NCBI GenBank assembly: GCA_018818205.1
Contig: JAHISJ010000013.1
Coordinates: forward strand, 16,661 to 80,660
From: Patescibacteria group bacterium
GTDB taxonomy: Bacteria > Patescibacteriota > JABMPQ01 > JAHIRA01
Reading direction: 5' to 3'
Length of the DNA stretch: 64,000 nt
Part shown: one piece after another, positions 2,725 to 62,687 of the stretch
How the letters are laid out: each line of letters starts with the position of its first letter
Numbering within the stretch: the first letter of the stretch is position 1
Notes under the pieces: generated by a model
The model's database searches: none
Told to the model about the DNA's origin: nothing
The model's input: the letters and a program-made list of their open reading frames with translations, nothing else
Made by a program: the position numbers and the translations under genes

Positions 2725-3972
2725 ATGAAGGTTCTGCACGCAAACAAATTCTACTACCTCCAAGGAGGTACTGAGCGATACTTCATTGAGACAATGGAGC
2801 TTTTGGAAAAGGAAAAAATCCAGTGTGTACCGTTTGCTATGCATCATCCAAAAAACTTAGAAACACCTTATAGCAAGTATTTTGTTAGTAATGTCGATTT
2901 TTCTAAAGTATCGTTTTCTAAAGAGGGGTTTAGGGTTGCTGGACGAATGCTCTACTCATTTGAGGCAAAGAAAAAGGTAGAAAAGCTCATAGAGGATGAA
3001 AAACCGGATATTGCGCATATCCACAACATTTATCATCAGATTTCACCATCGATTCTACCTGTTTTTAAAAATAACAACATTCCCGTTGTAATGTCTGTGC
3101 AGGACCATAAAATTATCTGTCCTGACTTTTTACTCTGTACCAATCATCCTAAACTCAGATATTGTCAAGACTGTAAACGGCATAAATATTACAAGGCGAT
3201 CCAGAATAAGTGTATCAAGGAATCATATATGGCAAGTACGCTTACGGCGCTTGAGATGTCGTTTCACAAGCTGGTGGGATACTATGAACGGTTTGTTGAT
3301 ACCTATATAGCTCCCAGCAATTTTGTCAAAGAACTTCTTATTGAGTGGGGGTATCCAGAAAAGAAAATCGTTACTATTCCGCTTTACGTTAAACATGACG
3401 AGCGTCCATACTCGTTTATGTATGATTCACAGAACCCCTATATTATCTACTGGGGACGCCATTCAAAAGAAAAGGGTGTCAGGTATTTAGTTGCGGCAAT
3501 GGAGAAGCTGCCTCACGTAAAGTGTATTATCTGTGGAACCGGTCCCGAGCATGAAGAGCTTAAACAAATTGCGAAAGACAAGAAGATTGATAACGTGGTG
3601 TTTTTAGGCTTTGTTCCTGACGAGGACTTAACACGAATTGCGCGGGATGCTCAGTTTGTCATTGTGCCATCAGTGTTTCCAGAAAACTTTGGACTGGTAG
3701 TAACAGAGGGGTTTGCGTTTGGAAAGCCGGTTATTGGGCCAAAGAGGGGAGCGCCTACTGAGCTTATTGATGTTGATAGAAATGGTCTCCTTTTTGAGGC
3801 ACAGAATGCAACTGACCTTGCAGAAAAGATTGATTCTTTGTGGAATAAAAAGGATAAGATTTCAGAAATGGGCAAAGAGGCAAGACGTGATGCAGAAACA
3901 CTCTATGATCCAAAATTACATATTGAAAGACTTATAACTACATACAACACTGTTCTTAAAAAAAATAAATAA
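2725..3972 (+). CDS. glycosyltransferase family 4 (GT-B, retaining type)
   Basis: EX7E motif PENFGLVVTEGFAFGKPVIG in the C-terminal half. Confidence 0.8.
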   Translation: MKVLHANKFYYLQGGTERYFIETMELLEKEKIQCVPFAMHHPKNLETPYSKYFVSNVDFSKVSFSKEGFRVAGRMLYSFEAKKKVEKLIEDEKPDIAHIHNIYHQISPSILPVFKNNNIPVVMSVQDHKIICPDFLLCTNHPKLRYCQDCKRHKYYKAIQNKCIKESYMASTLTALEMSFHKLVGYYERFVDTYIAPSNFVKELLIEWGYPEKKIVTIPLYVKHDERPYSFMYDSQNPYIIYWGRHSKEKGVRYLVAAMEKLPHVKCIICGTGPEHEELKQIAKDKKIDNVVFLGFVPDEDLTRIARDAQFVIVPSVFPENFGLVVTEGFAFGKPVIGPKRGAPTELIDVDRNGLLFEAQNATDLAEKIDSLWNKKDKISEMGKEARRDAETLYDPKLHIERLITTYNTVLKKNK

Positions 3973-5638: not shown

Positions 5639-5646
5639 TATTTTAT

Positions 5647-5755
5647 ATGTCATCCCGGACAGTTTTTCCGAAAACTGATCCGGGATCTCGTTGAGTGCAG
5701 CATTAGAAACGAGATCCCGGATATCCACTTAAGAAAGTGAATTCCGAGATGACAT
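5647..5755. repeat. structured palindromic element (closing stem atgtcatc/gatgacat enclosing three hairpins); its core is about 85% identical to the perfect palindrome at 62541-62588
   Basis: Core gtcatcccggacagtttttccgaaaactgatccgggat compared with gtcatcccggatcagtctttccgaagactgatccgggat. Second hairpin gggatctcgtt/aacgagatccc (11 bp). Confidence 0.5.
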
Positions 5756-11437: not shown

Positions 11438-12451
11438 ATGAAAATACTTGTCACAGGAGGTTTGGGATTCATTGGGAGTAACTTTGTCAGGTATGTTCTA
11501 AAAAAGTATCCTGAGTACGAAGTAGTTAATCTAGATAAGATGACGTATGCAGGGAATCCAGAGAATCTCAGGGATATTGAGGAGGATGCTCGCTATCATT
11601 TTTATAAGGGGGATATTTGTGATAGTGCTATTGTAGATACTATTTTCTCTGATCATGCTATAGACGCAATTATAAATTTTGCTGCGGAGTCACATGTTGA
11701 CAGGTCCATTGAAGATCCCGGTGCATTTATTCAAACGGATGTGTATGGCACGTTTGTTTTGCTTGAAGCAGTAAAGAAACATGGTGTTAAGCGGTACATT
11801 CAAATTAGCACGGACGAGGTGTATGGCGATTTTGATGACGGGGGATTTGCAACAGAGGAGTCGTCACTTGAACCATCAAGCCCCTACTCTGCTTCAAAAA
11901 CAGGAGGTGATTTACAGGTTATTGCTGCACGTAGAACGTACGATCTTCCCGTAATGATTACGCGGTGTACCAATAATTATGGGCCATACATGTATCCAGA
12001 AAAGCTCATTCCCCTATTTGTCACTAATTTGATTGAAGGGAAGAAGGTGCCGGTGTATGGTGCAGGTGATCAAATACGGGATTGGCTCTACGTTGATGAT
12101 CATTGTAGTGCTATAGATCTTGTACTTCACAAAGGTGAGTTGGGAGAGATTTACAATGTAGCTGCAAATCAAGACCCTGAAGTCACCAATCTGGAGCTCA
12201 CTAAAAGAATCCTTGAAGTGCTAAAGATGGGGGAAGAGATGATTGAGTATGTTAAAGATCGCCCCGGACATGATAAGCGCTATGCTGTTGATTGCAGCAA
12301 GATTAAGTTACTAGGATGGAAGGTTGAGACACCTCTTAAGGAAGGACTAGAAAAAACAGTACAGTGGTATGTTGACCATGAAGATTGGTGGAAGAAGATT
12401 AAGACAGGAGAGTATTTAGAATTTTATAAGAGACAGTACGAAGAACGTTAA
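11438..12451 (+). CDS. rmlB: dTDP-glucose 4,6-dehydratase
   Basis: [22 protein letters not shown], extended SDR with RmlB-type length and motifs. Confidence 0.9.
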   Translation: MKILVTGGLGFIGSNFVRYVLKKYPEYEVVNLDKMTYAGNPENLRDIEEDARYHFYKGDICDSAIVDTIFSDHAIDAIINFAAESHVDRSIEDPGAFIQTDVYGTFVLLEAVKKHGVKRYIQISTDEVYGDFDDGGFATEESSLEPSSPYSASKTGGDLQVIAARRTYDLPVMITRCTNNYGPYMYPEKLIPLFVTNLIEGKKVPVYGAGDQIRDWLYVDDHCSAIDLVLHKGELGEIYNVAANQDPEVTNLELTKRILEVLKMGEEMIEYVKDRPGHDKRYAVDCSKIKLLGWKVETPLKEGLEKTVQWYVDHEDWWKKIKTGEYLEFYKRQYEER

Positions 12452-28903: not shown

Positions 28904-31900
28904 ATGAGAAAAGTGAAAACACCTCATTTCGACATGTATCTTTTACCAGGGTTTGAGAGCTATTATTGTGACGATTTTGAACCTCTTTCTGTTTCCATTT
29001 TTAATTCTATAATAAAAAATGGAAATGTTGTTGTTGATGTTGGAGCCCACTTTGGTTATTTTACTTTACTTGCTTCAAAAAAGACTGATCGAGTTTATGC
29101 TATTGAGCCAGTAAAGAAAAATAATGAGGTTTTAAGGCAGAATATTGTACTTAATAACTCTCAAGCAATCGTATTTGATTGTGCAATTTCTGATCGTTTA
29201 GGAAAGAAAAAAATAAATGTAGCTACTTCTTCTGACTGCTCAGGTTTTTATGTGCATCCATTCTCTAAGCCGATTGATCAAGAATTGGTTTCAGTAAAGA
29301 CCCTTGACGATCTTTTCCATAATAAACGTATAGACTTGCTTAAAGTTGATACTGAAGGGAATGAATATAAGGTTCTTATGGGAATGGAAAGTGTATTGCT
29401 GCAAAATTCAAATCTTAAGCTGTTATTTGAGTTTAACCCCAAATGTTTAATATGTGCTGGAGACAAGCCTAGTGTTTTTTTAGAAACACTTAAACAACAT
29501 AATTATTCAATCTTTTTTATAGATGACAAAAGTCAAAAGATTGAAAATTATACGCAGTCTCCTGCTAGATGGTCTGAGATGATAGATGAAGATGCGTGTG
29601 TTAATTTGCTTTGCGTTCGCACAAGTGATCCAGATTACAACAATGTACTTTGCACAATTGATACTATAAAAAGAAAAATAGAAACTGCAAAAACTAGGGC
29701 TCGTAGTATTAGGTTTACTATTGGCATTACTGTATACAATAGAAAAGAGTACTTGGAAGAATGCGTTGAAAGTGCATTATCTCAGACGTATAAACCAGAT
29801 GAAATTATTATTGTTGATGACTTTTCACAAGATAAGGGCGTGATTGATATTCTTGAGAAATATAGGAATCGAGAAAATATCAAACTTATTTATAATAAAG
29901 AGAATTTAGGCATTGCTGGATCTTGGAATACAGTGCTAGATAATATGAGTAGTGAATGGTTGGTCATGCTAGATGGTGATGATGTTCTTGAAAAAAATGC
30001 TCTTGAAGAGATAACAAAGTATATTGCGCTTCACAATGAAATCGAATTTATTTCAACCTTGCATACAATTATTAATAGTAAAGGAGAAACACTCGGGGTT
30101 TTTGATAGGCCCCTAGGTAAAGATCCAAAGAAGTTGATTTTAGAGGGAATGTATTTGTCACATCTTAAAGTTTTTAATAAAATGTGCTTTGAAAAAGTGG
30201 GGAGCTTCAGAGGCAAGATAGCAGTTGACTATGACATGGTAGTAAGGGTTCTGGAAATGTGCAAGATGGGCATGCTTCATAAGTGTTTGTACAAATATCG
30301 TTTTCATGAAGATTCGTGTACCAAGAAAAGAGCTAAAGAACAATATGAAAAAGGATGCAAGATTCTATTGGGCACTTACAAAAGGCAAATGATCGATGAA
30401 AATCTCTATATAGACTCTATCATTGAGCGAGGGGCCCTGGCCCATTCCACAAATCTCGGATTACAGAGTAAAATTACACAGAATATTTACCGTATAAAGG
30501 AATTAACTAGCAAGATTGTACAGGAAACAGCTGAAAAAGAAAGAATAGATGTACTTTATAACAAGGAAGCAAAAAGTCATTCTACAGATCTAAATTCATT
30601 GGAATGGAGACTTGGGTGGTGTATTTGCAATCCGTTGAAAGCAGCAAAAAAAATACCTGTATTCGTTGATTATGTGTATGCTAAACGTAAAAAAGACATT
30701 ATCTGGGCAAAAAATAATCCAATTAGGTGTTGTAAAAAATATTTGAAAGTGCTTGTTTCTAAGGGAAAAACATGTGAAGAAGATTTAGAAAGAAGTATCT
30801 ATGATTCACTTACGTATACCGAAATAAATATTGATAAGTGGTCAGAAGATACGCCGCTTATCAGTGTGATTATCCCTTGCTATAATTATGGAAATTATAT
30901 TAGCGAAGCTTTAAATTCTATTTTTGCACAAACACTTCAAGATTTTGAGGTAATTATTATTGATGATGGGTCAACAGATCCTGGAACAGAGAAGGAGTTA
31001 AAAACGATAAAGCATCCTAAGGTCCAGGTTATTTTTCAAGAGAATTCCGGAGTCTCTAATGCTAGAAACAAGGGAATTAGTAAAGCAAAAGGAAAATATA
31101 TTTGTTGTCTAGATCCGGACGACATTCTTGATCCGACCTATTTTGAAAAATGTTTATTGGTTCTGGAAAGAGATGCACAATTAGGCCTTGCATATTCATG
31201 GGTAAAGGAAATTGGGGCTAGGGATATTTTATGGAAGACTACTGATTTGGATATTGACACATTACTTTCATCAAATCATGTACCAATAAGTGCGATTTTC
31301 AGAAAAGAAATAGCTGATAGCGTGTTCTTTGATCCAGATATTCGTCATGAAGACTGGGATTTTTGGCTTTCCGTTGTGGGAAAAGGGTGGCGTGGAAAAG
31401 TAATTCCCGAAGTTCTTATGTATAGCAAGAGACATGGAAACAATAAATCGTTACAAGATGAGCAATTTTATAAAGAAACACTATTAGCACTGAAAGAAAA
31501 GCATAAAAACCTTTTGAAGAAAGATTTCAGAGAAAAAGTGAAAGAGGAGTACATAAAAAAAATAGCGTTAAATCCTTTTACGAATTTAAATAGATCCGTC
31601 TATCAAGAAAAACACAAGAAAAGAGTGTTTGTTGTTGTTCCATTTTTAATATGTGGAGGAGCGGAGACACTTCTTTATAATTTTGCATCAAAGCTTAAGA
31701 ATGAAGTCGATTTTACTTTTATTTCCGTGATTAAGTCAAAAAATGAATGGGAAGACAGGTTTAAGGGAATTAGCTCTCGAGTGTATCATTTACCCAAACT
31801 TTTTGAAAGTAAAAATGTTTGTGATGATTTTTTACTCAATTATATTCAGACAAGAAATATTGATGTATTGCATTTCTTTCACTGTGGTTATTTTTATGAC

Positions 31901-32725
31901 ATACTTCCGATAATTGGCAGAAAATTTTCTTCATTAAAGATAGTTGTAACCCTGTTTAATTCATATGTTGACCACTTTGTTGATGCTACCAAGTATCATG
32001 AGAATGTAAGTATGTATACCTCAGATAATCAAGCTACCATTTCTACGTTTAAGAAACTCGGGGTTTCTGAAGAAAAGTTGCAGCTTTTGCCAAACGCAAT
32101 TGATCCTTTTGAAACGTATAATCCTGCAACTATCGATAGAGAAAATGAAAGAAAAAAGATTGGAGTAAAGGAAAATGAAATAGCCGTCTTTTTTATTGGA
32201 CGCTTATCAGAAGAGAAAAATCCGGATGTATTTTTGAAGATTGCAAGGCAGGTAGTGGCAAAAAAGAAGAATGTAAAATTTTTCGTTGTGGGTGATGGTA
32301 ACATGAAGAAAGAAATCATGCGGATGATTAAGCGGATTGGTAGTGCTAACATCACCTATCTAGGATATAGAAGTGATATCCCAAATTTGCTTACCGCAGC
32401 GGATATTTTTGTTCTACCTTCTAGGATTGAAGGATTTCCCTCATCTATGCTCGAGGCTATGGCAACAGAAAACTGTGTTATTGCTTCAGACGTTGGTGCT
32501 GTAGGAGATGTGATAGAGGACGGAAAGACAGGATTTGTGGTAAATAAAAAGGATTACAGGCGTTTTGTTGAGAGAATCCTTCAACTGGTTGATTCAAGAG
32601 AGACAATTGTTAACATGGGGAGAAAGGCACGAGAGGTTGTTGTACAAAACTATACTACTGAAAAATTAGCCAACAATTATAGAAAACTATACTCAAATGA
32701 AGAAAGTTCTCGTTTTGGGGAGTAG
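28904..32725 (+). CDS. four-domain glycan synthase: FkbM-family methyltransferase + GT2 + GT2 + GT4
   Basis: VVDVGAHFGYFT...LLKVDTEGNE (FkbM); TIGITVYNRKEYLEECVES...IIVDD (GT2); VIIPCYNYGNYISEALNS...IIIDDGS (GT2); RLSEEKNP...PSRIEGFPSSMLEAMA (GT4). Confidence 0.8.
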   Translation: MRKVKTPHFDMYLLPGFESYYCDDFEPLSVSIFNSIIKNGNVVVDVGAHFGYFTLLASKKTDRVYAIEPVKKNNEVLRQNIVLNNSQAIVFDCAISDRLGKKKINVATSSDCSGFYVHPFSKPIDQELVSVKTLDDLFHNKRIDLLKVDTEGNEYKVLMGMESVLLQNSNLKLLFEFNPKCLICAGDKPSVFLETLKQHNYSIFFIDDKSQKIENYTQSPARWSEMIDEDACVNLLCVRTSDPDYNNVLCTIDTIKRKIETAKTRARSIRFTIGITVYNRKEYLEECVESALSQTYKPDEIIIVDDFSQDKGVIDILEKYRNRENIKLIYNKENLGIAGSWNTVLDNMSSEWLVMLDGDDVLEKNALEEITKYIALHNEIEFISTLHTIINSKGETLGVFDRPLGKDPKKLILEGMYLSHLKVFNKMCFEKVGSFRGKIAVDYDMVVRVLEMCKMGMLHKCLYKYRFHEDSCTKKRAKEQYEKGCKILLGTYKRQMIDENLYIDSIIERGALAHSTNLGLQSKITQNIYRIKELTSKIVQETAEKERIDVLYNKEAKSHSTDLNSLEWRLGWCICNPLKAAKKIPVFVDYVYAKRKKDIIWAKNNPIRCCKKYLKVLVSKGKTCEEDLERSIYDSLTYTEINIDKWSEDTPLISVIIPCYNYGNYISEALNSIFAQTLQDFEVIIIDDGSTDPGTEKELKTIKHPKVQVIFQENSGVSNARNKGISKAKGKYICCLDPDDILDPTYFEKCLLVLERDAQLGLAYSWVKEIGARDILWKTTDLDIDTLLSSNHVPISAIFRKEIADSVFFDPDIRHEDWDFWLSVVGKGWRGKVIPEVLMYSKRHGNNKSLQDEQFYKETLLALKEKHKNLLKKDFREKVKEEYIKKIALNPFTNLNRSVYQEKHKKRVFVVVPFLICGGAETLLYNFASKLKNEVDFTFISVIKSKNEWEDRFKGISSRVYHLPKLFESKNVCDDFLLNYIQTRNIDVLHFFHCGYFYDILPIIGRKFSSLKIVVTLFNSYVDHFVDATKYHENVSMYTSDNQATISTFKKLGVSEEKLQLLPNAIDPFETYNPATIDRENERKKIGVKENEIAVFFIGRLSEEKNPDVFLKIARQVVAKKKNVKFFVVGDGNMKKEIMRMIKRIGSANITYLGYRSDIPNLLTAADIFVLPSRIEGFPSSMLEAMATENCVIASDVGAVGDVIEDGKTGFVVNKKDYRRFVERILQLVDSRETIVNMGRKAREVVVQNYTTEKLANNYRKLYSNEESSRFGE

Positions 32726-33584
32726 AGGATTCATTGGAAGAGCGGTCACCAGTTACTTGCAAAATAAAGAAGTGTTTGTGGTAACTGCAGATAGATCTGA
32801 CACCACGTGTGATTTTACTGTAGATTTAAAGAATAAAGATGATGTTCTTGATCTTGTAAGAAAAACGTTACCAAGTTATATTATTAATTGCGCGGGAATT
32901 TTAACTGCTGAGCATTGTTTTCTAAACCCTGTTTTTAGCATGAATGTTCTTAGTGCTCTAGAGGTATTTAAGAGTCAAATAACCTGTAAACTTATCGTCT
33001 TAGGATCTGCGTCAGAGTATGGAATAGTTGGTAAGCTTCCGGTATCTGAAGATGCTCCGTTGATGCCCCAGAACGCATATGACATGAGTAAGGTTATTGA
33101 AACATTGAGTGCACTAAAATATGCAGAGCTCCATGGTCTTAATGTCGTAATTGCACGGCTTTTTAATCCAATTGGTGCTTTAATGCACGAGCGAACACTC
33201 ATTCCAAGTCTTATTAGACAGGTGAAAGAATTAGCACGTAGCAGTCAAAAAAAGCTAGAGGTCAATAGGCTTGATTCTAAAAGGGATTTTTTGGCGGTTT
33301 CTGATGTAGCAGAAGCTATTGCCACAATTGCCCTATCGGAAGAGAATAAAGAGAAGGTATATAACATTGGCTCTGGGGAAGAGGCAAGCGTGGAGCAACT
33401 GATTCAGTCGTTTCTTGAAACTGTTAATTTTTCTCGGAATATAGAAATCGTTGAGACTAGTGAACAACCCGAGCCTCAATATGCATCTAGGGCGGATATT
33501 AGTAGAATTTCAACAGAGTTTGGCTGGAAACCTAAGAATAATTTAAGGGAAGTTGTTAACGAGCTGGTTAATGAGCAAGAATGA
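32697..33584 (+). CDS. NAD(P)-dependent sugar-nucleotide 4-reductase, Rmd-like (GDP-4-keto-6-deoxy-D-mannose reductase candidate)
   Basis: VLVLGSRGFIGRAV, YDMSK, RLFNPIG...RDFLAVSDVAEAI; architecture parallels Rmd; gmd is in the same window. Confidence 0.55.
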   Translation: MKKVLVLGSRGFIGRAVTSYLQNKEVFVVTADRSDTTCDFTVDLKNKDDVLDLVRKTLPSYIINCAGILTAEHCFLNPVFSMNVLSALEVFKSQITCKLIVLGSASEYGIVGKLPVSEDAPLMPQNAYDMSKVIETLSALKYAELHGLNVVIARLFNPIGALMHERTLIPSLIRQVKELARSSQKKLEVNRLDSKRDFLAVSDVAEAIATIALSEENKEKVYNIGSGEEASVEQLIQSFLETVNFSRNIEIVETSEQPEPQYASRADISRISTEFGWKPKNNLREVVNELVNEQE

Positions 33585-34342
33585 AGAATAAAATAAAGAT
33601 AATTATTGTAGGAGCAGGGGAGGCTGGTTCTCTTATTTCAAAGAATATTTATGATGATAAAAACTCTCCTTTTGAACTTGTAGGCTTTGTTGATGATGAT
33701 TTGAAGAAGAAAGAAAAAAAGATTAATGGGAAAAAGGTTTTGGGGGAGCTTAAAAATCTGAAAGAATTAATTGATGAGTTTTCAATAAAAGAATTGCTTA
33801 TAGCTATGCCCTCCGGACGCGGTGATGTCATTCGGAAGGTTCTGGATTGCACTAAAGATAGGCGGGTTCGGTATAAAATAATTCCCAGAAGTACCAAGGT
33901 GTTGATACAGGACTTTGGCGAGAGCTATCTTAAACATATCCGAGATGTATCGGTTGAAGATTTGCTTGGAGGTGAGATTGTAAAATCTGAACTTAAGGTA
34001 ATTGGAAAATATCTCAAGAATAAATGCATATTGATAACCGGTGCGGCAGGGTCAATTGGCTCTGAGCTTGCACGGCAAGTTGCCGCTTTTAGCAATGCTA
34101 AAAAGGTTATTTTGTTTGATTGGTCAGAAAACGGTATGTTCTTGTTGCAAAATGATATTCAGGGGAGCTATCCGAACCATCCCGTTGAGTTTGTTATTGG
34201 TGATATTAAAGATAAACAAAGATTGAATTATATTTTTGACACTTTTTCTCCTGATCTTGTGTTTCATGCTGCAGTGTATAAGCACGTACCTTTAATCTCT
34301 CCAGGGGTTCTATCCCCCGCCGCTTGCGGCGTGATATACTAG
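33581..34342 (+). pseudogene. 5' fragment of a CapD/PglF/WbpM-like NDP-sugar 4,6-dehydratase, truncated at the IS200 left end
   Basis: ILITGAAGSIGSELARQV...FHAAVYKHVPL, then the reading frame runs into the IS left end and stops; about half the expected length. Confidence 0.6.
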
Positions 34343-34825
34343 AGCTATGAGCACATATGTACATAAAAGTCATAATGTAAGCGTGTTACTGTATCACCTG
34401 GTATTTCCTGCAAAGTATCGTCGTGTGGTTATCGATGCACAGGTAGATGAAATTATCAAAGAAACATGCTTGGAAATTGCACAGAGGTACGAAGTACATT
34501 TCCTTGAAATAGGTACAGACAAGAACCACATACATCTGTTGGTACAAAGTGTTCCCACATACACGGTGACCAAACTTGTTACGATGATAAAAAATATTAC
34601 AGCCAGACACGTTTTCAACCAATGTCCCGATGTGAAAAAACAACTTTGGGGTGGAGAATTCTGGTCAGACGGATACTTTGCAAGTACGGTAAGTAAACAC
34701 GGAAATGAAGATATGATATCAAATTATGTAAAAAAGCAGAGAGAAGAGTACACAAAGCTACACAATAATCATCAACTTCGGTTATTCTAGCGGATACCCC
34801 GTCCGCTTGCGGCGGGGTAGTTTAT
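34300..34825 (+). mobile_element. IS200/IS605-family insertion sequence (tnpA only) with subterminal hairpins at both ends
   Basis: Left-end hairpin ccgccgcttgcggcg (about 34317-34331). Right-end hairpin ccccgtccgcttgcggcgggg (34797-34817). Y1 transposase gene between them. Confidence 0.75.
34347..34790 (+). CDS. tnpA: IS200/IS605 family transposase TnpA (HUH Y1)
   Basis: HUH motif HIHLLV, catalytic Tyr in SDGYFASTV; 147 aa. Confidence 0.85.
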   Translation: MSTYVHKSHNVSVLLYHLVFPAKYRRVVIDAQVDEIIKETCLEIAQRYEVHFLEIGTDKNHIHLLVQSVPTYTVTKLVTMIKNITARHVFNQCPDVKKQLWGGEFWSDGYFASTVSKHGNEDMISNYVKKQREEYTKLHNNHQLRLF

Positions 34826-34882
34826 TCTACATATAGGCCAGAATTTAACTATCTGACAATATCCAAATGGAATGAACGTGAA

Positions 34883-35467
34883 TTGGAAAATCATGGCTAT
34901 AGCTCAACTATTGCTTCTCCTGGAATAAACCAGGAAGTTTATAAATGTTATGATGACGTAGGAAGAAGAGATGATTTACTTCTTTCTGTTGGCTGGTCAC
35001 ATTACTTAAAGAATTTAGATTATCTTTTAGATGGGTGGAGAGGAATGAAAACCAAGCCGAAATTAGAGCTTTTTAGAATTGAGCCTCGTCTAGGTAAGAA
35101 GAATGGTGTAAAGTATTATTACAAACCAAATGATATTCAAGTGGCACGCTTGTATAACAGGGCAACCGTTTTTGCTCAAACTTCGCTTCATGAAGGGTTT
35201 TGTTTACCGATTCTTGAGGCTATGGCATGTGGATGTCCAGTTGTTTGTACGGATGCAGATGGCAATTTGGATTTTTGTGTTGATGGTAAGAATTGTTTAA
35301 TAGTTGCAAAAGATGATGTTAATGCTTTAACTGGTGCTCTTGAATCTTTGCTTAGAGATGAAGGCTTGAGAGAGAGACTTTCTCGAGAAGGGAAGAGAAC
35401 GGCTGAGAAATATGTGTGGGATATGCAAAATACTTTACTTGAAGCGTTTATGTATGATCTCAAATAG
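34883..35467 (+). pseudogene. 3' fragment of a GT4 glycosyltransferase (C-terminal half only), fused in frame to the IS right end
   Basis: [19 protein letters not shown] (EX7E) present but the N-terminal Rossmann half is absent. The open frame extends upstream into the IS right-end hairpin. Confidence 0.6.
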
Positions 35468-35514
35468 TATTTGATTTAATTTTATTGTTACTTTATTCAA
35501 AAAAATTGCGAGTC

Positions 35515-36492
35515 ATGGAGATAGTAAAGAAAAAAACACTTATTTCAGTAGTCATTCCTGTATATGGCTGTTATTCATGCTTAGAAGAGCTTTGCAATAG
35601 GATCAATAAAGTTTTTAAGCTTAAAATGCCAGACACTGAATATGAAGTTCTGCTCGTCAATGATGCTAGCCCAGATGAATCTTGGAAAAAAATTGAGGAA
35701 TTGGCTAAAATAGATAAACGTATTATGGGGATAAGTTTATCAAGGAATTTTGGACAGCATAGAGCAATCACAGCAGGTCTTGACTTTTCAGGTGGGGATT
35801 GGGTTGTTGTGATGGATTGTGACTTACAGGACCCTCCTGAAGAGATTGCAAGACTTTACAATGAAGCTCTTATGGGCTATGACATAGTGATGGGGAGGAG
35901 AAGTGTTCGGATAGATTCGTTTTTCAAAAAGGTATCATCAAAGCTTTTTCATTTGATTCATAATTGGCTGTCTGGTACAAAAACTGATCCAGATGTTGCA
36001 AATTTTTGTATTTGCTCGAGAAAAGTGGTTAATGCTATTAAGAAAATTCGAGAGCAAAGCAGATTTTTCCCAAGTTTACTACAATGGGTTGGATTCAAGA
36101 AAACATACATAGATATAAACCATGCGAAGAGAAGAGAAGGAAAGTCGTCGTATAGTTTGAGAAAGTTGATTAGCTTAGCCATTGAAGATATTGTTGCATT
36201 TTCTAATAAGCCTCTCAAAATGGCAGTCTATTTTGGTTTCTTTGTTTCTCTTTTTTCTTTCTCTTATGCGTTTTATTTAGTCGTAAGGTATATATTTTTT
36301 AGCTTTTCTGTTGAGGGTTGGACAAGCGTTATTGTTTCGATATGGCTTGCGACTGGTTTAATCATTATGATTGCTGGTATTGTTGGAATTTATGTTAGTA
36401 GAATCTTTGATGAGGTTAAAGGGAGGCCCATTTATATAGTTAAAGATACTACTGAAAATAGAACAATAGAGCGTGATTTACTTGTTGAATAA
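35515..36492 (+). CDS. GT2 polyprenol-phosphate aminosugar/hexose transferase (ArnC/GtrB-like) with two C-terminal TM helices
   Basis: ISVVIPVYG...LLVNDASPDES...GQHRAITAGL...VVMDCDLQDPPEEI. Confidence 0.75.
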   Translation: MEIVKKKTLISVVIPVYGCYSCLEELCNRINKVFKLKMPDTEYEVLLVNDASPDESWKKIEELAKIDKRIMGISLSRNFGQHRAITAGLDFSGGDWVVVMDCDLQDPPEEIARLYNEALMGYDIVMGRRSVRIDSFFKKVSSKLFHLIHNWLSGTKTDPDVANFCICSRKVVNAIKKIREQSRFFPSLLQWVGFKKTYIDINHAKRREGKSSYSLRKLISLAIEDIVAFSNKPLKMAVYFGFFVSLFSFSYAFYLVVRYIFFSFSVEGWTSVIVSIWLATGLIIMIAGIVGIYVSRIFDEVKGRPIYIVKDTTENRTIERDLLVE

Positions 36493-36591
36493 AAGTTTAC
36501 TAATTTCTATATTATAATAAATTTGTGTATATGGTAGAGTTTATTGCATGATTATCCATTCTGTTAGTTAACAATACGATTTGTATCAGAA

Positions 36592-36963
36592 ATGAACGCT
36601 ATATTATTTATCATTCTTACAATAATTTTCACGGTTTCAAGTCAGCTTCTCTTAAAATGGAGAGTTACAGCTATAATTGAGGAACATGGGCTATTAGAAA
36701 GTAAAGTTAGTATTATCTCTAAAACATTATTGGACCCATTAGCTCTTTTAGCTTTGTTTTTTGCCTTTGTTGCATCATTGTCTTGGATATTAGCACTTTC
36801 GAAAAAAATTGAACTAAGTATTGCTTATCCTTTAACAAGCATGAGTTTTGTATTAGTCTTTATATTTTCGATAGCTGTCTTTAACGAGTCTTTTAGTATA
36901 TTTAAGGTTATTGGTCTTCTCATAATCATAACAGGGGTAGTTTTTTTAAGTTTTAGTTTATGA
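36592..36963 (+). CDS. small 4-TM DMT/SMR-like protein, ArnE/ArnF-like lipid-linked sugar flippase subunit candidate
   Basis: C-terminal IAYPLTSMSFVLVFIFSIAVFNESFSIFKVIGLLIIITGVVFL aligns with the ArnE IAYPMLSLNFVWV...GGIVIL region. Confidence 0.6.
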   Translation: MNAILFIILTIIFTVSSQLLLKWRVTAIIEEHGLLESKVSIISKTLLDPLALLALFFAFVASLSWILALSKKIELSIAYPLTSMSFVLVFIFSIAVFNESFSIFKVIGLLIIITGVVFLSFSL

Positions 36964-37415
36964 TAGTTTTCCCAAAGTGCTTAATGAAAATAGAAACTGA
37001 TAAAAAGTGTGAACACATTTTATTTCGAGATGGCGTATATTATTTTGATAAAGATAAGTCCAAAGATTATCTAGAAGCGTTTGATCCTCGTTCATTTAAG
37101 GCTCTTTGTAACGCTGAAACGACACATTTTTGGTTTCAACAGAGAAAAAAATAAGAGCGAATATTTTTGTAGAGTATATTCCTAAGGAAAGTTCTGTACT
37201 TGAAATAGGTGCAGGAACAGGTATCATTACAAAAGAAATAAGAAATCCTGGATACTATTTCAGCAGCAGATATACATGGAGAGTCGCTTAAGCTCTAAAA
37301 CAAGTTAAAATAGGAAAAATCTCTAATACAATGTTAAATATTGTTACAAAAGCAGAAGAAGGGTTGACTCGATTTAAGCTGCCATTCGGAAGTAGCATAT
37401 TAATTATTGCCCAAA
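36960..37415 (+). pseudogene. degraded class I SAM-dependent methyltransferase (frameshift in an A7 run plus internal loss)
   Basis: ...THFWFQQRKK then a frame change at agagaaaaaaataag, continuing ...EYIPKESSVLEIGAGTGIITKEI (motif I) followed by a stop. A separate C-terminal remnant ends at 37415. Confidence 0.5.
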
Positions 37416-37419
37416 AAAA

Positions 37420-38568
37420 ATGATTCCTTTCAATATTCCTACTTTTTTAGGTAAAGAAAAAAGTTATCTATTAGATGCTATTGATAAATTAAAGCTTTGT
37501 GGCGATGGTTCTTACACAAAGAAGTGTCAAGAGCTAATGGAAAAAAAATTTCATTGTAAAAAGGTTTTACTGACAACTTCTTGCTCTCATGCTTTGGATA
37601 TGTCAGCTATCCTTATTGATGTAAAGGAGGGCGATGAAGTTATAATGCCTTCGTACACCTTTGTTTCAACTGCAAATGCTTTTGTGTTAAGGGGCGCTAA
37701 AGTTGTGTTTGTTGACATTCGGCCCGATACTATGAATATTGATGAAAACCTAATAGAAGAGGCAATTACAGAAAAGACTAAGGCTATTGTAGTTGTTCAC
37801 TATGCAGGGGTAGGTTGTGAAATGGACACAATTATTGATATTGGAAAAAAATATAATTTGAAAGTGATTGAAGACGCTGCTCAAGGAGTAAATGCAAAAT
37901 ACAATGGGAAGTATTTAGGAACAATAGGAGACATTGGGTGTTATAGTTTCCACGAGACTAAGAATTATACTTGTGGAGAAGGTGGAGCTCTTTTGCTTAA
38001 TGATGAGCAAATGATTGAAAGGGCTGAGATTATTAGAGAAAAAGGTACTAATAGAGCGAAGTTTTTTAGAGGGCAGGTTGATAAATACTCATGGGTTGAT
38101 ATAGGTTCATCTTTTTTGCCTAGTGAGTTGAATGCAGCTTATCTCTTGGCACAATTGGAAGATATCGAAAAAGTAAACGAACGTCGATTATCTATTTGGA
38201 ATATGTATCGTAAGAAACTCAATTTACTTGATCAAAATATTCACATTGAATTCCCATTCATTCCTAGCTCCTGCAAGCAAAATGGACACATGTTTTATAT
38301 TAAGGTTAAAGATTTAACTGAAAGACAGAATTTAATAGATTTTTTAAAAAATAGAGACATAATGACTGTTTTTCATTATATTCCTTTACATTCTTCTAAA
38401 GCAGGGAAAAAAAATGGAAGATTTTTTGGGAAGGAAATTTATACTACTAAGGAGAGCGAGAAACTGTTGCGTTTGCCGATGTTTTATAGTCTATGCGAAG
38501 AAGATATTGATTATGTCTCAAGTGAAATAATAAATTATTATAAGCAAAATGATCTTTCAATATCTTAA
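37420..38568 (+). CDS. wecE: DegT/DnrJ/EryC1-family PLP aminotransferase, dTDP-4-keto-6-deoxyhexose 4-transaminase (WecE-like)
   Basis: MIPFNIPTF...KLCGDGSYTKKCQELMEKKF...EVIMPSYTFVSTANAFVLRGAKVVFVDIRPDTMNIDE...SFHETKNYTCGEGGALLLND closely parallels E. coli WecE. Confidence 0.75.
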   Translation: MIPFNIPTFLGKEKSYLLDAIDKLKLCGDGSYTKKCQELMEKKFHCKKVLLTTSCSHALDMSAILIDVKEGDEVIMPSYTFVSTANAFVLRGAKVVFVDIRPDTMNIDENLIEEAITEKTKAIVVVHYAGVGCEMDTIIDIGKKYNLKVIEDAAQGVNAKYNGKYLGTIGDIGCYSFHETKNYTCGEGGALLLNDEQMIERAEIIREKGTNRAKFFRGQVDKYSWVDIGSSFLPSELNAAYLLAQLEDIEKVNERRLSIWNMYRKKLNLLDQNIHIEFPFIPSSCKQNGHMFYIKVKDLTERQNLIDFLKNRDIMTVFHYIPLHSSKAGKKNGRFFGKEIYTTKESEKLLRLPMFYSLCEEDIDYVSSEIINYYKQNDLSIS

Positions 38569-40015
38569 ATTAAATAAAAGTGAATTTAAGTATTTCTTGT
38601 ATGCTTTCTTAGCCTCACTTTTGGCAAGGGGCGTAGTATTGTTTAATCTTTCTTACGCGATAGATGATTACTCATATATGTTTACCCATATTACTTTGGA
38701 TAGAAATTGTATATCTTTTGGTAGGTGGGGGCTTGGTATTGTTAATGATTTTTTCTTTTATTTAGGAATTGAGGGTCCATACGCTTTTCCTTTTGTTGCT
38801 ATATTATCTTTTCTAACTTTGGCTTATGTTAGTGTTTTAATATGTAGAATGTGGGACGTGAAGGGGTTTTGGGCTTGTATATTGGTTTCACTTTTTTTCA
38901 TTCTCCATCCATATCAGTCTGAAATTTATACCTTTAGGATAGCATCAATTTCCTTTTTCGTTGCGCTTTTGTTTGCATTTACCTCTTTTTATTTAGCGGG
39001 AGTTTTAAAAAGAAGGCTATTGTTCTTACCGATAATGCTATTTGTTTTTTCTTTGAGCGTATACCAAATAGTATTGAATTACGTTTTTGTAGTATATTTT
39101 TTCTCTTTAATAGTCTTCTTACTCTTTAAACAAAATGAGAGGAGGAATAGAGAGTCTTTATTCTCGCAATTTATTTTGCTTATAGGGGGTACTTTTGTCT
39201 ACTTCATAGTAAATAAGCTAATTTTATACTTAACTCAGATAGAAACTCCTAAGCGTGCAGAATTTGTGACTTTCGATCAAATTCCTGATCGAGTGAAAGA
39301 AATTTCCTTGTTGGTTTTTGGGATGTTTTATCAAGCTGAAAGTATTCTACCTTTTTTGACAAAAATATTATTACTTTTATTTCTTTTACTCTTTATTTTT
39401 TCTGTCTCTATTTTTTTACTAAAAAAGAAATTGTATTTAAAATTAGCACTTTTTATTTTTGTTTTCATTTTGGCTTATTTTTCAACAATAGGCGTCAATA
39501 TGATGAATGGTGTTTGGTGGCCAGCTCCTAGGGTTCTGGCTAGTGTCGGTATTTTCTGGGGAGGCATTTTGGCAATTACATATAAGCTTAAAATGAAACT
39601 AATTTTGAAGATTTCCTTGACTCTTTCAATAGTAGTTTTATTTAGTTTTGTAGGAGTCAACAATAAAGTTTTTGTTGATCAAATACGTATTAACAAGTTC
39701 GATTTTAGTTCAGCAATAAGAATTACTAGTTTACTTGAAAAACAGCCTAATTTTTCACCTTCTATGCCATTGTACATAGATGGGCGTATACAATATACTT
39801 ATTTACCAGTTACTATGATGTATGACATGAATGTATCTGCTTTATTACAGCCTTGGTCAAAAGTTTCTCTTCTTAATGAATCCGTTGGGTATAGTTTTTT
39901 ACAACCAAATCCAATGCAGGTTGATATAGGTAGAAAGGCATGTGAAGACGCTGCAAAATGGCCTAGCGAGAAATCTGTCTTTGTTGTTGAAGGGGTAGGT
40001 GTTGTTTGTCTATAA
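38549..40015 (+). CDS. polytopic membrane protein, GT-C-fold glycosyltransferase candidate (ArnT/GtrII-like role)
   Basis: About 12 TM helices; acidic first-loop motif YAIDDYSYM about 40 aa from the N-terminus. Follows the polyprenol-P GT2 / flippase-like / aminotransferase genes. Confidence 0.5.
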   Translation: MIFQYLKLNKSEFKYFLYAFLASLLARGVVLFNLSYAIDDYSYMFTHITLDRNCISFGRWGLGIVNDFFFYLGIEGPYAFPFVAILSFLTLAYVSVLICRMWDVKGFWACILVSLFFILHPYQSEIYTFRIASISFFVALLFAFTSFYLAGVLKRRLLFLPIMLFVFSLSVYQIVLNYVFVVYFFSLIVFLLFKQNERRNRESLFSQFILLIGGTFVYFIVNKLILYLTQIETPKRAEFVTFDQIPDRVKEISLLVFGMFYQAESILPFLTKILLLLFLLLFIFSVSIFLLKKKLYLKLALFIFVFILAYFSTIGVNMMNGVWWPAPRVLASVGIFWGGILAITYKLKMKLILKISLTLSIVVLFSFVGVNNKVFVDQIRINKFDFSSAIRITSLLEKQPNFSPSMPLYIDGRIQYTYLPVTMMYDMNVSALLQPWSKVSLLNESVGYSFLQPNPMQVDIGRKACEDAAKWPSEKSVFVVEGVGVVCL

Positions 40016-48984: not shown

Positions 48985-50524
48985 ATTTACAGATAAACTT
49001 ATTTTGCTACTTGTAATTTTTGTAGTTTTTATTGGTATTTTTTCTTTTTATCAAAGTAATCCAAAGTACCTTACTGGTGATGATGCGGCTATTCATTTGA
49101 GCAAAGCTGTTTTTAACGTTAATAAAGCGAGTGTCAATTACATAAATCCTTTTAAGCCTTTTTCTGAAGAACCAGCGTATGGTAATCTTTATATTGATGA
49201 ATTTCCTTTCCATGTTCTGGTTTCTGGGATTATGCTTAGCACAGGAACAGACGTGATTTCGGCAACAAAAGTTGTCATTTTTGTTTTGCAAATTTTTCTT
49301 TTTATTGGTTTGTTTCTTTTTCTTGAATGTATATTCAGAGATAGAATGTTTTCGTTTCTTGCAGCTTTTTTTGCAATGTTTAGTTATTGGATTGCAATTA
49401 TGTATTTTGAAGGAACTTACGCACAAATTATGGGCATGGTGTTTATACCTTTCTACTTATTATTAGTTAACGATTATTTCAATAAAAAAAACAATCCATC
49501 TCTTATTGGCGCAATAGCAATTAATGGGTTGCTTTTTTTCGTTCATCCTTTAACTTTTATTTTTGTATGTGTTCTTAGTTTCTCTTATCTTCTCTATTTT
49601 TTAGTACTTAATAAAAAATACATTGTATTAGCCTTACTTATCATAGCTACTGTTGTTATTCTTATTGTTATTGCTCTTTTTCCAAACTTGCCATATCCTA
49701 AATTCTACTCTGGGAATATTACTGATAACCCAAGTTTTGAGTTAAAAGATTTTTATGGTAAGCTAATTTCAGGCTTGTCGCCATACATTATTTTAGGACT
49801 TTTTGTTGCGGGTATTGTAAGCTCTTTAAAGTCTAAAAAAATAGTATTGATAGCTCTTCTCATATCATATCTTTTTATCTCGAGTGAAACATTCGGAGTT
49901 CCTTTCTTTCCACACCGGTTTAATCCTTATTTCATGGTTCTAGTGATTATTACTGTTTTTTATGGTTTTAAAGAGCTTTTCATAAGAATAAAGAATTATC
50001 GTTTAGCATATTTACTCCTTGTATTGTTTTTTATTGTTATTTCGGTGGGAGTGGTATATTCTTTCCAAGCGGTTAAAGAAGCACATGTCCATTTTTCCAA
50101 AGGACTGAGCCCGGCTATTATTACTGATAATGATTATGCGGCACTATCGTGGATTAAAGAAAATATACCGGGTGATGAAACAATACTGGCGACAAATAAA
50201 TGGGGGTACTTTGTTCCTTCATTGGCAGAGCATACTGTATTACTAGGAGATTCATTCGAATTACACGATGTTGAGAAAAAAGATCTAAAGAACAGACAAG
50301 AGATTGCTCAACAGAATGGACATGCTGTTTTTCGGGAGACTGATTCAAGAGTAAAGGCAGAATTATTACAAAGTATTGGTGTTAAGTATATTTTTGTACC
50401 TGATCAAATGAGAAAATATATCAGTGACTATGCACCATATGAAATCTATAATACTGATTTTGATTCAAAGTATTTTAGTGTTTTTTATAAGAGAGGCGAT
50501 GCAATTGTATATAAGTTGAGGTAA
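48974..50524 (+). CDS. polytopic membrane protein, GT-C-fold glycosyltransferase candidate
   Basis: About 12 TM helices; first-loop acidic motif LTGDDAAIH; C-terminal soluble domain. Confidence 0.5.
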   Translation: MKSRFTDKLILLLVIFVVFIGIFSFYQSNPKYLTGDDAAIHLSKAVFNVNKASVNYINPFKPFSEEPAYGNLYIDEFPFHVLVSGIMLSTGTDVISATKVVIFVLQIFLFIGLFLFLECIFRDRMFSFLAAFFAMFSYWIAIMYFEGTYAQIMGMVFIPFYLLLVNDYFNKKNNPSLIGAIAINGLLFFVHPLTFIFVCVLSFSYLLYFLVLNKKYIVLALLIIATVVILIVIALFPNLPYPKFYSGNITDNPSFELKDFYGKLISGLSPYIILGLFVAGIVSSLKSKKIVLIALLISYLFISSETFGVPFFPHRFNPYFMVLVIITVFYGFKELFIRIKNYRLAYLLLVLFFIVISVGVVYSFQAVKEAHVHFSKGLSPAIITDNDYAALSWIKENIPGDETILATNKWGYFVPSLAEHTVLLGDSFELHDVEKKDLKNRQEIAQQNGHAVFRETDSRVKAELLQSIGVKYIFVPDQMRKYISDYAPYEIYNTDFDSKYFSVFYKRGDAIVYKLR

Positions 50525-62452: not shown

Positions 62453-62540
62453 ATACTTATTATACGGGTTTTTAGGTGAAATCCAAGGTTTCTTTTGTGA
62501 AAAGTAGGGTATGAAGCAGCGTGATCTTACTCATAAATAG

Positions 62541-62588
62541 TCTGTCATCCCGGATCAGTCTTTCCGAAGACTGATCCGGGATGACAGA
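62541..62588. repeat. perfect 21-bp-arm palindrome (ctgtcatcccggatcagtctt tccg aagactgatccgggatgacag) in a divergent intergenic region; related to the element at 5647-5755
   Basis: Direct inspection; the two arms are exact reverse complements. Confidence 0.6.
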
Positions 62589-62687
62589 TAGTTTATTGTA
62601 TTTCGGTGCCTACTGGGGTTATAGGATGGTAGGCTTACTATTTTTTCTCTTGAAAAGCATCAAGAATTATGCTAGAGTATTAGCAAT

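Follow-up and report, generated by a model that had tools for sequence, protein, structure and literature searches.

How a complete insertion sequence (IS) came to lie between the halves of two different genes is the question raised by a long polysaccharide locus of an uncultured Patescibacteria group bacterium, a member of the candidate phyla radiation (CPR). The stretch of DNA analysed, referred to here as the window, is 64 kb long and is part of an 82,950-bp contig from a metagenome-assembled genome; positions given below are those of the window unless another locus is named. Its genes are almost all on the + strand (open reading frames, ORFs, of at least 120 aa occupy 50.3 kb of the + strand versus 8.5 kb of the - strand) and its GC content is ~35-40%. 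Within this locus a complete IS200-type element, in the same orientation as the operon, exactly separates what is left of two genes, the front half of one for a sugar dehydratase and the back half of one for a family 4 glycosyltransferase (GT4), the three ORFs at the break being the NCBI proteins MBU1118702-704.

The element is 531 bp long (34296-34826, + strand), as delimited by the points at which its multi-copy relatives diverge, and carries tnpA only. This gene (34347-34790, + strand) is intact and encodes a 147-aa Y1 HUH transposase, residues 11-131 of which match Pfam Y1_Tnp across profile positions 2-121 of 121 (E 2.8e-36). The best matches among solved relatives are the TnpA structures of ISDra2 (2xm3, E 2.3e-17) and IS608 (2a6m), and both the HUH motif (HIH) and the region of the catalytic tyrosine (SNYVKKQ) are in register with DHVHLL and QKYIESQ of ISDra2 TnpA; the NCBI name of MBU1118703.1 is likewise IS200/IS605 family transposase. 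It is the only ORF with a family match inside the 531 bp, tnpB is absent, and an Rfam scan of 33000-36000 gave no match (no omega RNA, for example); the tnpA-only content therefore places the element in the IS200 group.

The ends of the element were set by comparing the DNA around 64 related copies, many of which lie within single genomes. In these relatives, from Microcystis, Candidatus (Ca.) Megaera and others, the conserved element starts TCTCT or TCCCT and finishes ..GGGGTAGTT(T/C)ATT, the right end also reading ..GTAGTT(T/C)ATT, with the flanks diverging beyond. The corresponding termini in the window are TCTCTCC.. and ..GTTTATT (right-end sequence ..GTAGTTTATT), which are not inverted repeats of each other. 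The left end (34296-34346, + strand) contains two adjacent stem-loops, at 34304-34317 and 34318-34331, with a computed single-stranded fold of -8.5 kcal/mol, and the right end (34791-34826, + strand) an imperfect hairpin at 34795-34819 followed by GTTTATT, with a fold of -10.1 kcal/mol (z = -2.5); both ends are conserved among the relatives. The second left-end stem-loop and the right-end hairpin share the 12-mer CCGCTTGCGGCG, which has two exact occurrences in the 64 kb, at 34320 and 34803 and both on the + strand, where chance would give 0.02 and none of 100 shuffles gave two. In its minimum-energy fold the right-end hairpin has a bulged (extrahelical) T at 34802, and this CCCCG-T-CCGC form of the bulge is found in many relatives; in IS608 the extrahelical T of the right-end hairpin is a key recognition feature that serves in strand and end discrimination (PMC5027513). 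The original prediction of an IS200/IS605 element with end hairpins on one strand, made for this DNA before any database search, is thus borne out by the Y1_Tnp match, the repeated 12-mer and the folds, and 34296-34826 is a complete and, to judge from its sequence, apparently functional member of the IS200 group.

Directly 5' of the left end is the pentanucleotide TTTAA (34291-34295, + strand), which fits TTNAA, the target of this IS family as recognised from the left flanks of the relatives. TTNAA stands ahead of the left end in 53 of 65 entries (the 64 related copies and the window), as TTTAA in 22, TTGAA in 13, TTAAA in 10 and TTCAA in 8, and several of the other entries are offsets of the search pattern. 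The right flanks of the relatives carry no repeat of the target, and as the right flank in the window is non-cognate a target duplication cannot be judged for this copy. With TTTAA abutting the left end against a base rate for TTNAA of 1.0% per position in the window, the left junction looks like the genuine product of an insertion by the transposase, and unlike a deletion that happened to end there.

A different kind of joint is seen in a Verrucomicrobiae metagenome-assembled genome (OY969777.1), where in two of the related loci (L006 and L022, both at ~2920-3000) a right end (..GCGGCGGGGTTCTTTATT) directly abuts a left end upstream of tnpA that starts CTCTCCGGG.. or CTTTTTGGG..; either the copies stand in tandem or a joint like a circle junction has become fixed there.

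On its left side the element adjoins the 5' remnant of a gene for a CapD/PglF-like nucleoside diphosphate-sugar 4,6-dehydratase without transmembrane segments, of which codons 1-238 out of ~480 are left (33581-34295, + strand). The annotated ORF is longer (33581-34342), as it continues into the IS left end for its last 15 codons and meets a stop there at 34340-34342, and it matches CoA_binding_3 together with only positions 1-93 of 293 of Polysacc_synt_2. The remnant is 54-57% identical to residues 7-242 of homologues of ~478-485 aa, the best relatives (55-57% identical) being P0002 and P0003, from the loci L084 and L083 respectively, in which the gene order (giant multi-domain glycosyltransferase, 295-aa epimerase/reductase, CapD-like gene) matches that of the window. 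The native sequence ends ..HAAVYKHVPL, where the homologues go on ME.NP.EAIKNN… and reach STDKAV ~35 residues later (..VSTDKAVNPTNIMGATKR..), and the part lacking in the window would be homologous to MEHNPAEAIKNN..STDKAV..; homology stops at the TTTAA target site. A complete short-chain dehydrogenase/reductase (SDR) domain, including the S/T-D-K motif region, was looked for in the remnant and is not there. The T-D-K of the STDK motif is presumably catalytic in PglF, and the predicted product of the remnant cannot be active.

Neither of the related loci has its CapD-like gene called whole: at 8001-9435 of L083 and within 3917-6246 of L084 it is represented by two ORFs that overlap (396+100 aa and 341+150 aa respectively), and in L084 the upstream epimerase is split too (151+132 aa). 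The splits are probably due to frameshift errors in long-read assembly, and these genes are then not real pseudogenes.

On its right side the element adjoins the 3' remnant of the GT4 gene (34827-35467, + strand), 212 codons counted from 34829, which encodes a C-terminal Rossmann domain with the EX7E motif. The annotated start is a TTG at 34883, yet the frame ending at 35467 stays open back through the IS right end; its matches are to Glycos_transf_1 and Glyco_trans_1_4 only. An alignment (A1) with homologues of 343-363 aa begins TYRPEF.., at the first full codon past the IS right end and 18 codons upstream of the annotated TTG. The full-length homologues have a further 125-146 residues at the N-terminus, amounting to the whole first Rossmann domain. 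Whilst the EX7E glutamates (E122..E130) are intact, the two domains required of a GT-B enzyme are not both present, the N-terminal acceptor domain having no counterpart in the remnant. A natural stand-alone half-size GT4 was considered and rejected, given that homology to the full-length proteins reaches the IS end, upstream of any start codon. Among the homologues there are six of 173-212 aa that consist of the C-terminal domain alone (P0144, P0148, P0160, P0162, P0164 and P0166, on contigs of 39-634 kb), and these could be any of frameshift-split genes, other truncations or a real half-size form.

As the left junction interrupts the dehydratase gene and the right junction falls midway through the unrelated GT4 gene, the two are pseudogenes. 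It had been predicted that only the front half of a CapD/PglF-like gene lies upstream and only the back half of a GT4 gene downstream, and that both truncated reading frames run into the IS ends, and in each of these respects the alignments agree. The missing C-terminal part of the dehydratase and N-terminal part of the GT4 were sought by tblastn in six frames of the window and a further 9.7 kb upstream, together 73.7 kb of the 82.95-kb contig, and only weak hits to paralogues or noise were returned. Since the missing halves are absent in all frames of these 73.7 kb the genes cannot be rebuilt by frameshift correction, and the same search led us to reject both a frameshift and a nearby relocation of the missing halves. 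Alignment to the homologues, by which it had been proposed that the deletion be sized, puts the missing DNA at no less than ~1.1 kb: the dehydratase gene is short of ~0.72 kb and the GT4 gene of 0.38-0.44 kb, to which anything that lay between them must be added.

As to how this DNA was lost, on balance we think it probable that there were two copies of the element in the same orientation, one in each gene, and that host recombination deleted the interval along with one copy. The copies would have inserted into the dehydratase gene and the GT4 gene, each 3' of a TTNAA; homologous recombination by the host between the two would then have removed the interval plus one IS copy, and the result would be a single IS whose left flank comes from the first insertion and whose right flank comes from the second. 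A simple insertion at TTTAA would leave the rest of the dehydratase (TG GAA.., ..ME..) after the right end, and as the GT4 is there instead the two-copy route is the simplest. If the base before the right flank is taken to be the final A of TTTAA the junction reads ..TTA ACT ACA TAT.. (L-T-T-Y-R), and a second TTTAA target at the GT4 junction is plausible as L-T-T-Y-R matches the V-L-N-T-Y-R of the homologues in A1.

Elements of this family transpose precisely, by a single-strand "peel and paste" process: on excision the top strand forms a circle, which is then inserted 3' of a short target, the cleavage sites being chosen by base pairing with guide bases beside the hairpins (PMC3201880, PMC5027513), and in the IS200/IS605 family this leaves no adjacent deletions (PMC5027513). 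The original prediction had the element itself removing the DNA: the loss of the 3' part of the dehydratase gene and the 5' part of the GT4 gene stands, but the element is a less likely agent of that loss than host recombination between two copies, in view of the precision of transposition in the family (PMC5027513). The family also prefers to have its active strand on the lagging-strand template (PMC5027513). The GC skew of the + strand is positive in every 8-kb bin of the window, and if an excess of G over C marks the leading strand, the top strand of the IS would be the lagging-strand template, as the family prefers.

Deletions and pseudogenes associated with IS elements are known in capsule, O-antigen and exopolysaccharide loci, where they arise via recombination of two direct IS copies, and such losses have usually been described for IS families with a DDE transposase. 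The arrangement in the window is like them in that one IS is left between non-cognate gene fragments within a surface-glycan locus, and unlike them in that the element is of the single-strand HUH type and a two-copy intermediate was not observed.

There are points that weigh against two-copy recombination. Neither a second IS copy nor a relative free of the IS was found, and the two-copy step is not visible; the nearest homologue of the dehydratase is merely 57% identical; a deletion from the right end of the IS, or an aberrant reaction of the transposase, would yield the same final sequence; and the independence of the assemblies that contain the arrangement, discussed below, is judged from source names and contig sizes only.

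The explanation that survives best after two-copy recombination, although we regard it as rather unlikely, is a one-sided deletion, in which a single insertion 3' of TTTAA in the dehydratase gene was followed by loss from the IS right end to the middle of the GT4 gene, either through illegitimate recombination or because TnpA made an aberrant strand transfer where the DNA is single-stranded, at the replication fork. In the mirror case the first insertion would have been in the GT4 gene and TnpA would then have linked the left end to a TTTAA some way off, in the dehydratase gene. We know of no adjacent deletion made by TnpA that has been documented for an IS200/IS605 element, though the literature was not searched exhaustively for one. 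A one-sided deletion predicts exactly the sequence observed, it would account for the canonical target at the left end and for there being only one copy in the data, and nothing in the sequence separates it from two-copy recombination. On single-stranded DNA the cuts made by TnpA fall 3' both of the target and of the right end, so the wrong partner site is conceivable (PMC3201880, PMC5027513), but excision and integration in the family are described as precise (PMC5027513).

That the junctions were created during assembly seems improbable. There could have been two direct IS copies, or two loci, with the assembler pairing one copy's left flank with the other's right flank and the intervening segment either skipped or placed on another contig. 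The source is indeed a short-read metagenome-assembled genome (with a MEGAHIT-style contig name, k141_365028), the 531-bp repeat is longer than the k-mer size, and a collapsed direct repeat would give the pattern observed. However, exact matches to the TnpA and to the dehydratase fragment (P0001) are each found on four contigs, recorded in ENA, NCBI, JGI/IMG and Logan, with the same neighbours in all of them. Together with these sources, the contig sizes on record, 82,950 bp, 54,276 bp (for the contig on which JGI calls the GT4 fragment) and a further one of the 20-50 kb class, suggest that the four contigs represent three separate assemblies. A branching repeat would normally break contigs, and three assemblies would not be expected to bridge it identically, which makes a collapsed repeat an unlikely cause. 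Furthermore, the collection holds no other context for this TnpA and no variant of it within 90% identity, and the missing halves are not on the 73.7 kb of contig that was searched. It had also been proposed that remodelling of the locus is ongoing, which these records do not support, there being no sign of heterogeneity and the same arrangement in all four contigs.

It is very improbable that the IS had no part in the loss and that the dehydratase and GT4 genes were fused earlier, by a deletion or by an exchange of cassettes between glycan loci, the IS either having inserted later at a TTTAA exactly at the junction or being the crossover point of a right-hand cassette that was acquired horizontally. 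Glycan loci are mosaic, the conserved block of giant glycosyltransferase, 295-aa epimerase and CapD-like gene ends at the CapD-like gene with a sequel that differs in each genome, and the gene contexts of the GT4 homologues P0151 and P0138 have no synteny in common with the right-hand module or with the locus in the window. Against this, the insertion must fall exactly on the older junction even though the 5' fragment of the dehydratase gene alone holds ten TTNAA sites, and there is no abrupt change of GC content at the IS, the values on either side being 0.38-0.41.

It is just as improbable that the transposase itself made the deletion, TnpA having cut 3' of a distant TTNAA and at its own IS end and joined the wrong partners on lagging-strand template DNA, in which case the DNA between the genes would be looped out as a single-stranded circle with the IS left in place. 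If true, such a transposase-catalysed adjacent deletion would give small, IS-poor CPR genomes a route by which to trim their surface-glycan loci.

The IS200 group to which the element belongs is well known, and with IS200, IS608 and ISDra2 it shares a Y1 HUH transposase of ~150 aa, subterminal imperfect hairpins on one strand at both ends, the lack of terminal inverted repeats and a left end that abuts a short specific target. Like the IS200 of Salmonella it has tnpA alone, and at 531 bp it is shorter than IS200, which is ~700 bp. The target of ISDra2, from D. radiodurans, is TTGAT and differs from the TTNAA of the window element. TTNAA is also unlike the TTAC of IS608, from H. pylori (PMC5027513), though the extrahelical T of the right-end hairpin is a likeness to that element. 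The TnpA of the window is distant from the solved transposases (E ~1e-17) and its host is one of the Patescibacteria.

When one genome per GTDB species was scanned, this TnpA proved to have hundreds of relatives that are 67-77% identical to it; their hosts include cyanobacteria, Ca. Megaera, Verrucomicrobiae and several CPR lineages, and the closest among the species representatives (77% identical) is from a Candidatus Uhrbacteria genome. When clustered at 90% identity the TnpA is the single member of its cluster and therefore one IS copy remains; a second copy was not found in the 64-kb window. The related copies (L002-L080) from Microcystis, Ca. Megaera polyxenophila, Verrucomicrobiae, Elainella and others have a TnpA that is 67-72% identical to that of the window, and the cores of their ends are nearly identical to those of the window element (…CCCCGCCGCTTGCGGCG… and …CCCCG(T)C(C/T)GCTTGCGGCGGGGTAGTT(T/C)ATT), with TTNAA shared in the left flank. 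Those genomes have many copies in varied contexts, whereas the window has one copy, with flanks from two different genes.

Several features bear on how the element may be expressed and how it may affect the operon in which it lies. The read-through ORF of the dehydratase ends at a TAG (34340-34342) four bases ahead of the tnpA ATG at 34347, and translation of the host operon could thus open the left-end hairpins and couple into tnpA. In the related copies (L002-L060) there is a hexamer that resembles a -10 element (TACAAT, TATAAT, TAAGAT or TAAAAT) 6-8 nt before the tnpA ATG, the same place in the window (34332-34346) having TATACT, and a Shine-Dalgarno sequence is absent between the left-end hairpin and the start of tnpA in these copies; such an arrangement suggests that the tnpA mRNA has a very short leader or is leaderless. 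The right-end hairpin with its GTTTATT fits a terminator-like pattern on the + strand, which is that of the operon, so reduced transcription downstream is possible, and the hairpin may lower the transcription of downstream genes.

The glycan pathway is likely to have lost one step of the UDP-N-acetylhexosamine (UDP-HexNAc) 4,6-dehydratase type, yielding a 6-deoxy-HexNAc-type precursor, and one GT4 transfer. The window dehydratase is like CapD, PglF and WbpM in having an N-terminal domain resembling CoA_binding_3 followed by an SDR domain that opens with the nucleotide-binding motif TGAAGSIG, and unlike them in that it has no N-terminal membrane segments, as is the case for its CPR homologues, and is cut at profile position 93/293. 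The conserved pairing of the CapD-like gene with the upstream 295-aa SDR gene suggests a two-step route to a 6-deoxy-HexNAc-type sugar, and the 295-aa SDR gene upstream of the remnant is now orphaned. To speak of the loss of an amino-sugar branch, as had been done, is an overstatement: one dehydratase-type step and one GT4 transfer are gone, but the WecE aminotransferase is served by an intact RmlB. With 629 bits against a cut-off of 375 this aminotransferase (37420-38568) classes as a dTDP-4-amino-4,6-dideoxygalactose transaminase, and the WecE subfamily model gives it 626 bits; RmlB is intact at 11438-12451 with 467 bits (cut-off 365), and as RmlB supplies the WecE-type aminotransferase that module is independent of the broken dehydratase gene.

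The aminotransferase is part of an Arn-like module (35485-40015) that comprises an ArnC/PgfS-like polyprenyl-phosphate GT2, an ArnF-like 123-aa membrane protein, the WecE-type aminotransferase and a 488-aa polytopic membrane protein, the resemblance of 35515-36489 to ArnC/PgfS and that of 36592-36960 to ArnF both being below the family cut-offs; its composition suggests a pathway for lipid-linked amino-sugar modification in a CPR bacterium. At the other side of the break, the 1273-aa ORF at 28904-32725 is a fusion of Methyltransf_21, two GT2 domains and a C-terminal GT1/GT4 domain. The same fusion (1097 aa) is found upstream of the epimerase/CapD-like pair in L083, and at the matching place in L084 there is a 447-aa protein that resembles only the C-terminal (GT4) region of the 1273-aa fusion. 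Further downstream, 62533-62596 is a near-perfect palindrome with 30-nt arms (ATAAATAGTCTGTCATCCCGGATCAGTCTT / AAGACTGATCCGGGATGACAGATAGTTTAT), to which copies at 5644-5686 (near 5660, 93% over 27 nt) and 50325-50351 are related. A small palindromic element that recurs in the locus, or a terminator that its intergenic sites have in common, could account for it.

Finally, the element adds a new member to an IS family that is already well known, and its position between non-cognate remnants reflects gene decay of a familiar kind; surface-polysaccharide genes commonly decay in association with IS elements, and the case opens no new question. For annotation it means that the IS transposase, the middle one of MBU1118702-704, has a pseudogene remnant on either side, and that the names "polysaccharide biosynthesis protein" and "glycosyltransferase family 4 protein" do not fit the remnants. 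When the glycan pathway of this CPR genome is reconstructed, one dehydratase step and one transferase should be left out, and for an IS200 lineage that is spread over many phyla with end sequences almost unchanged, the exact ends and the TTNAA target are now given.

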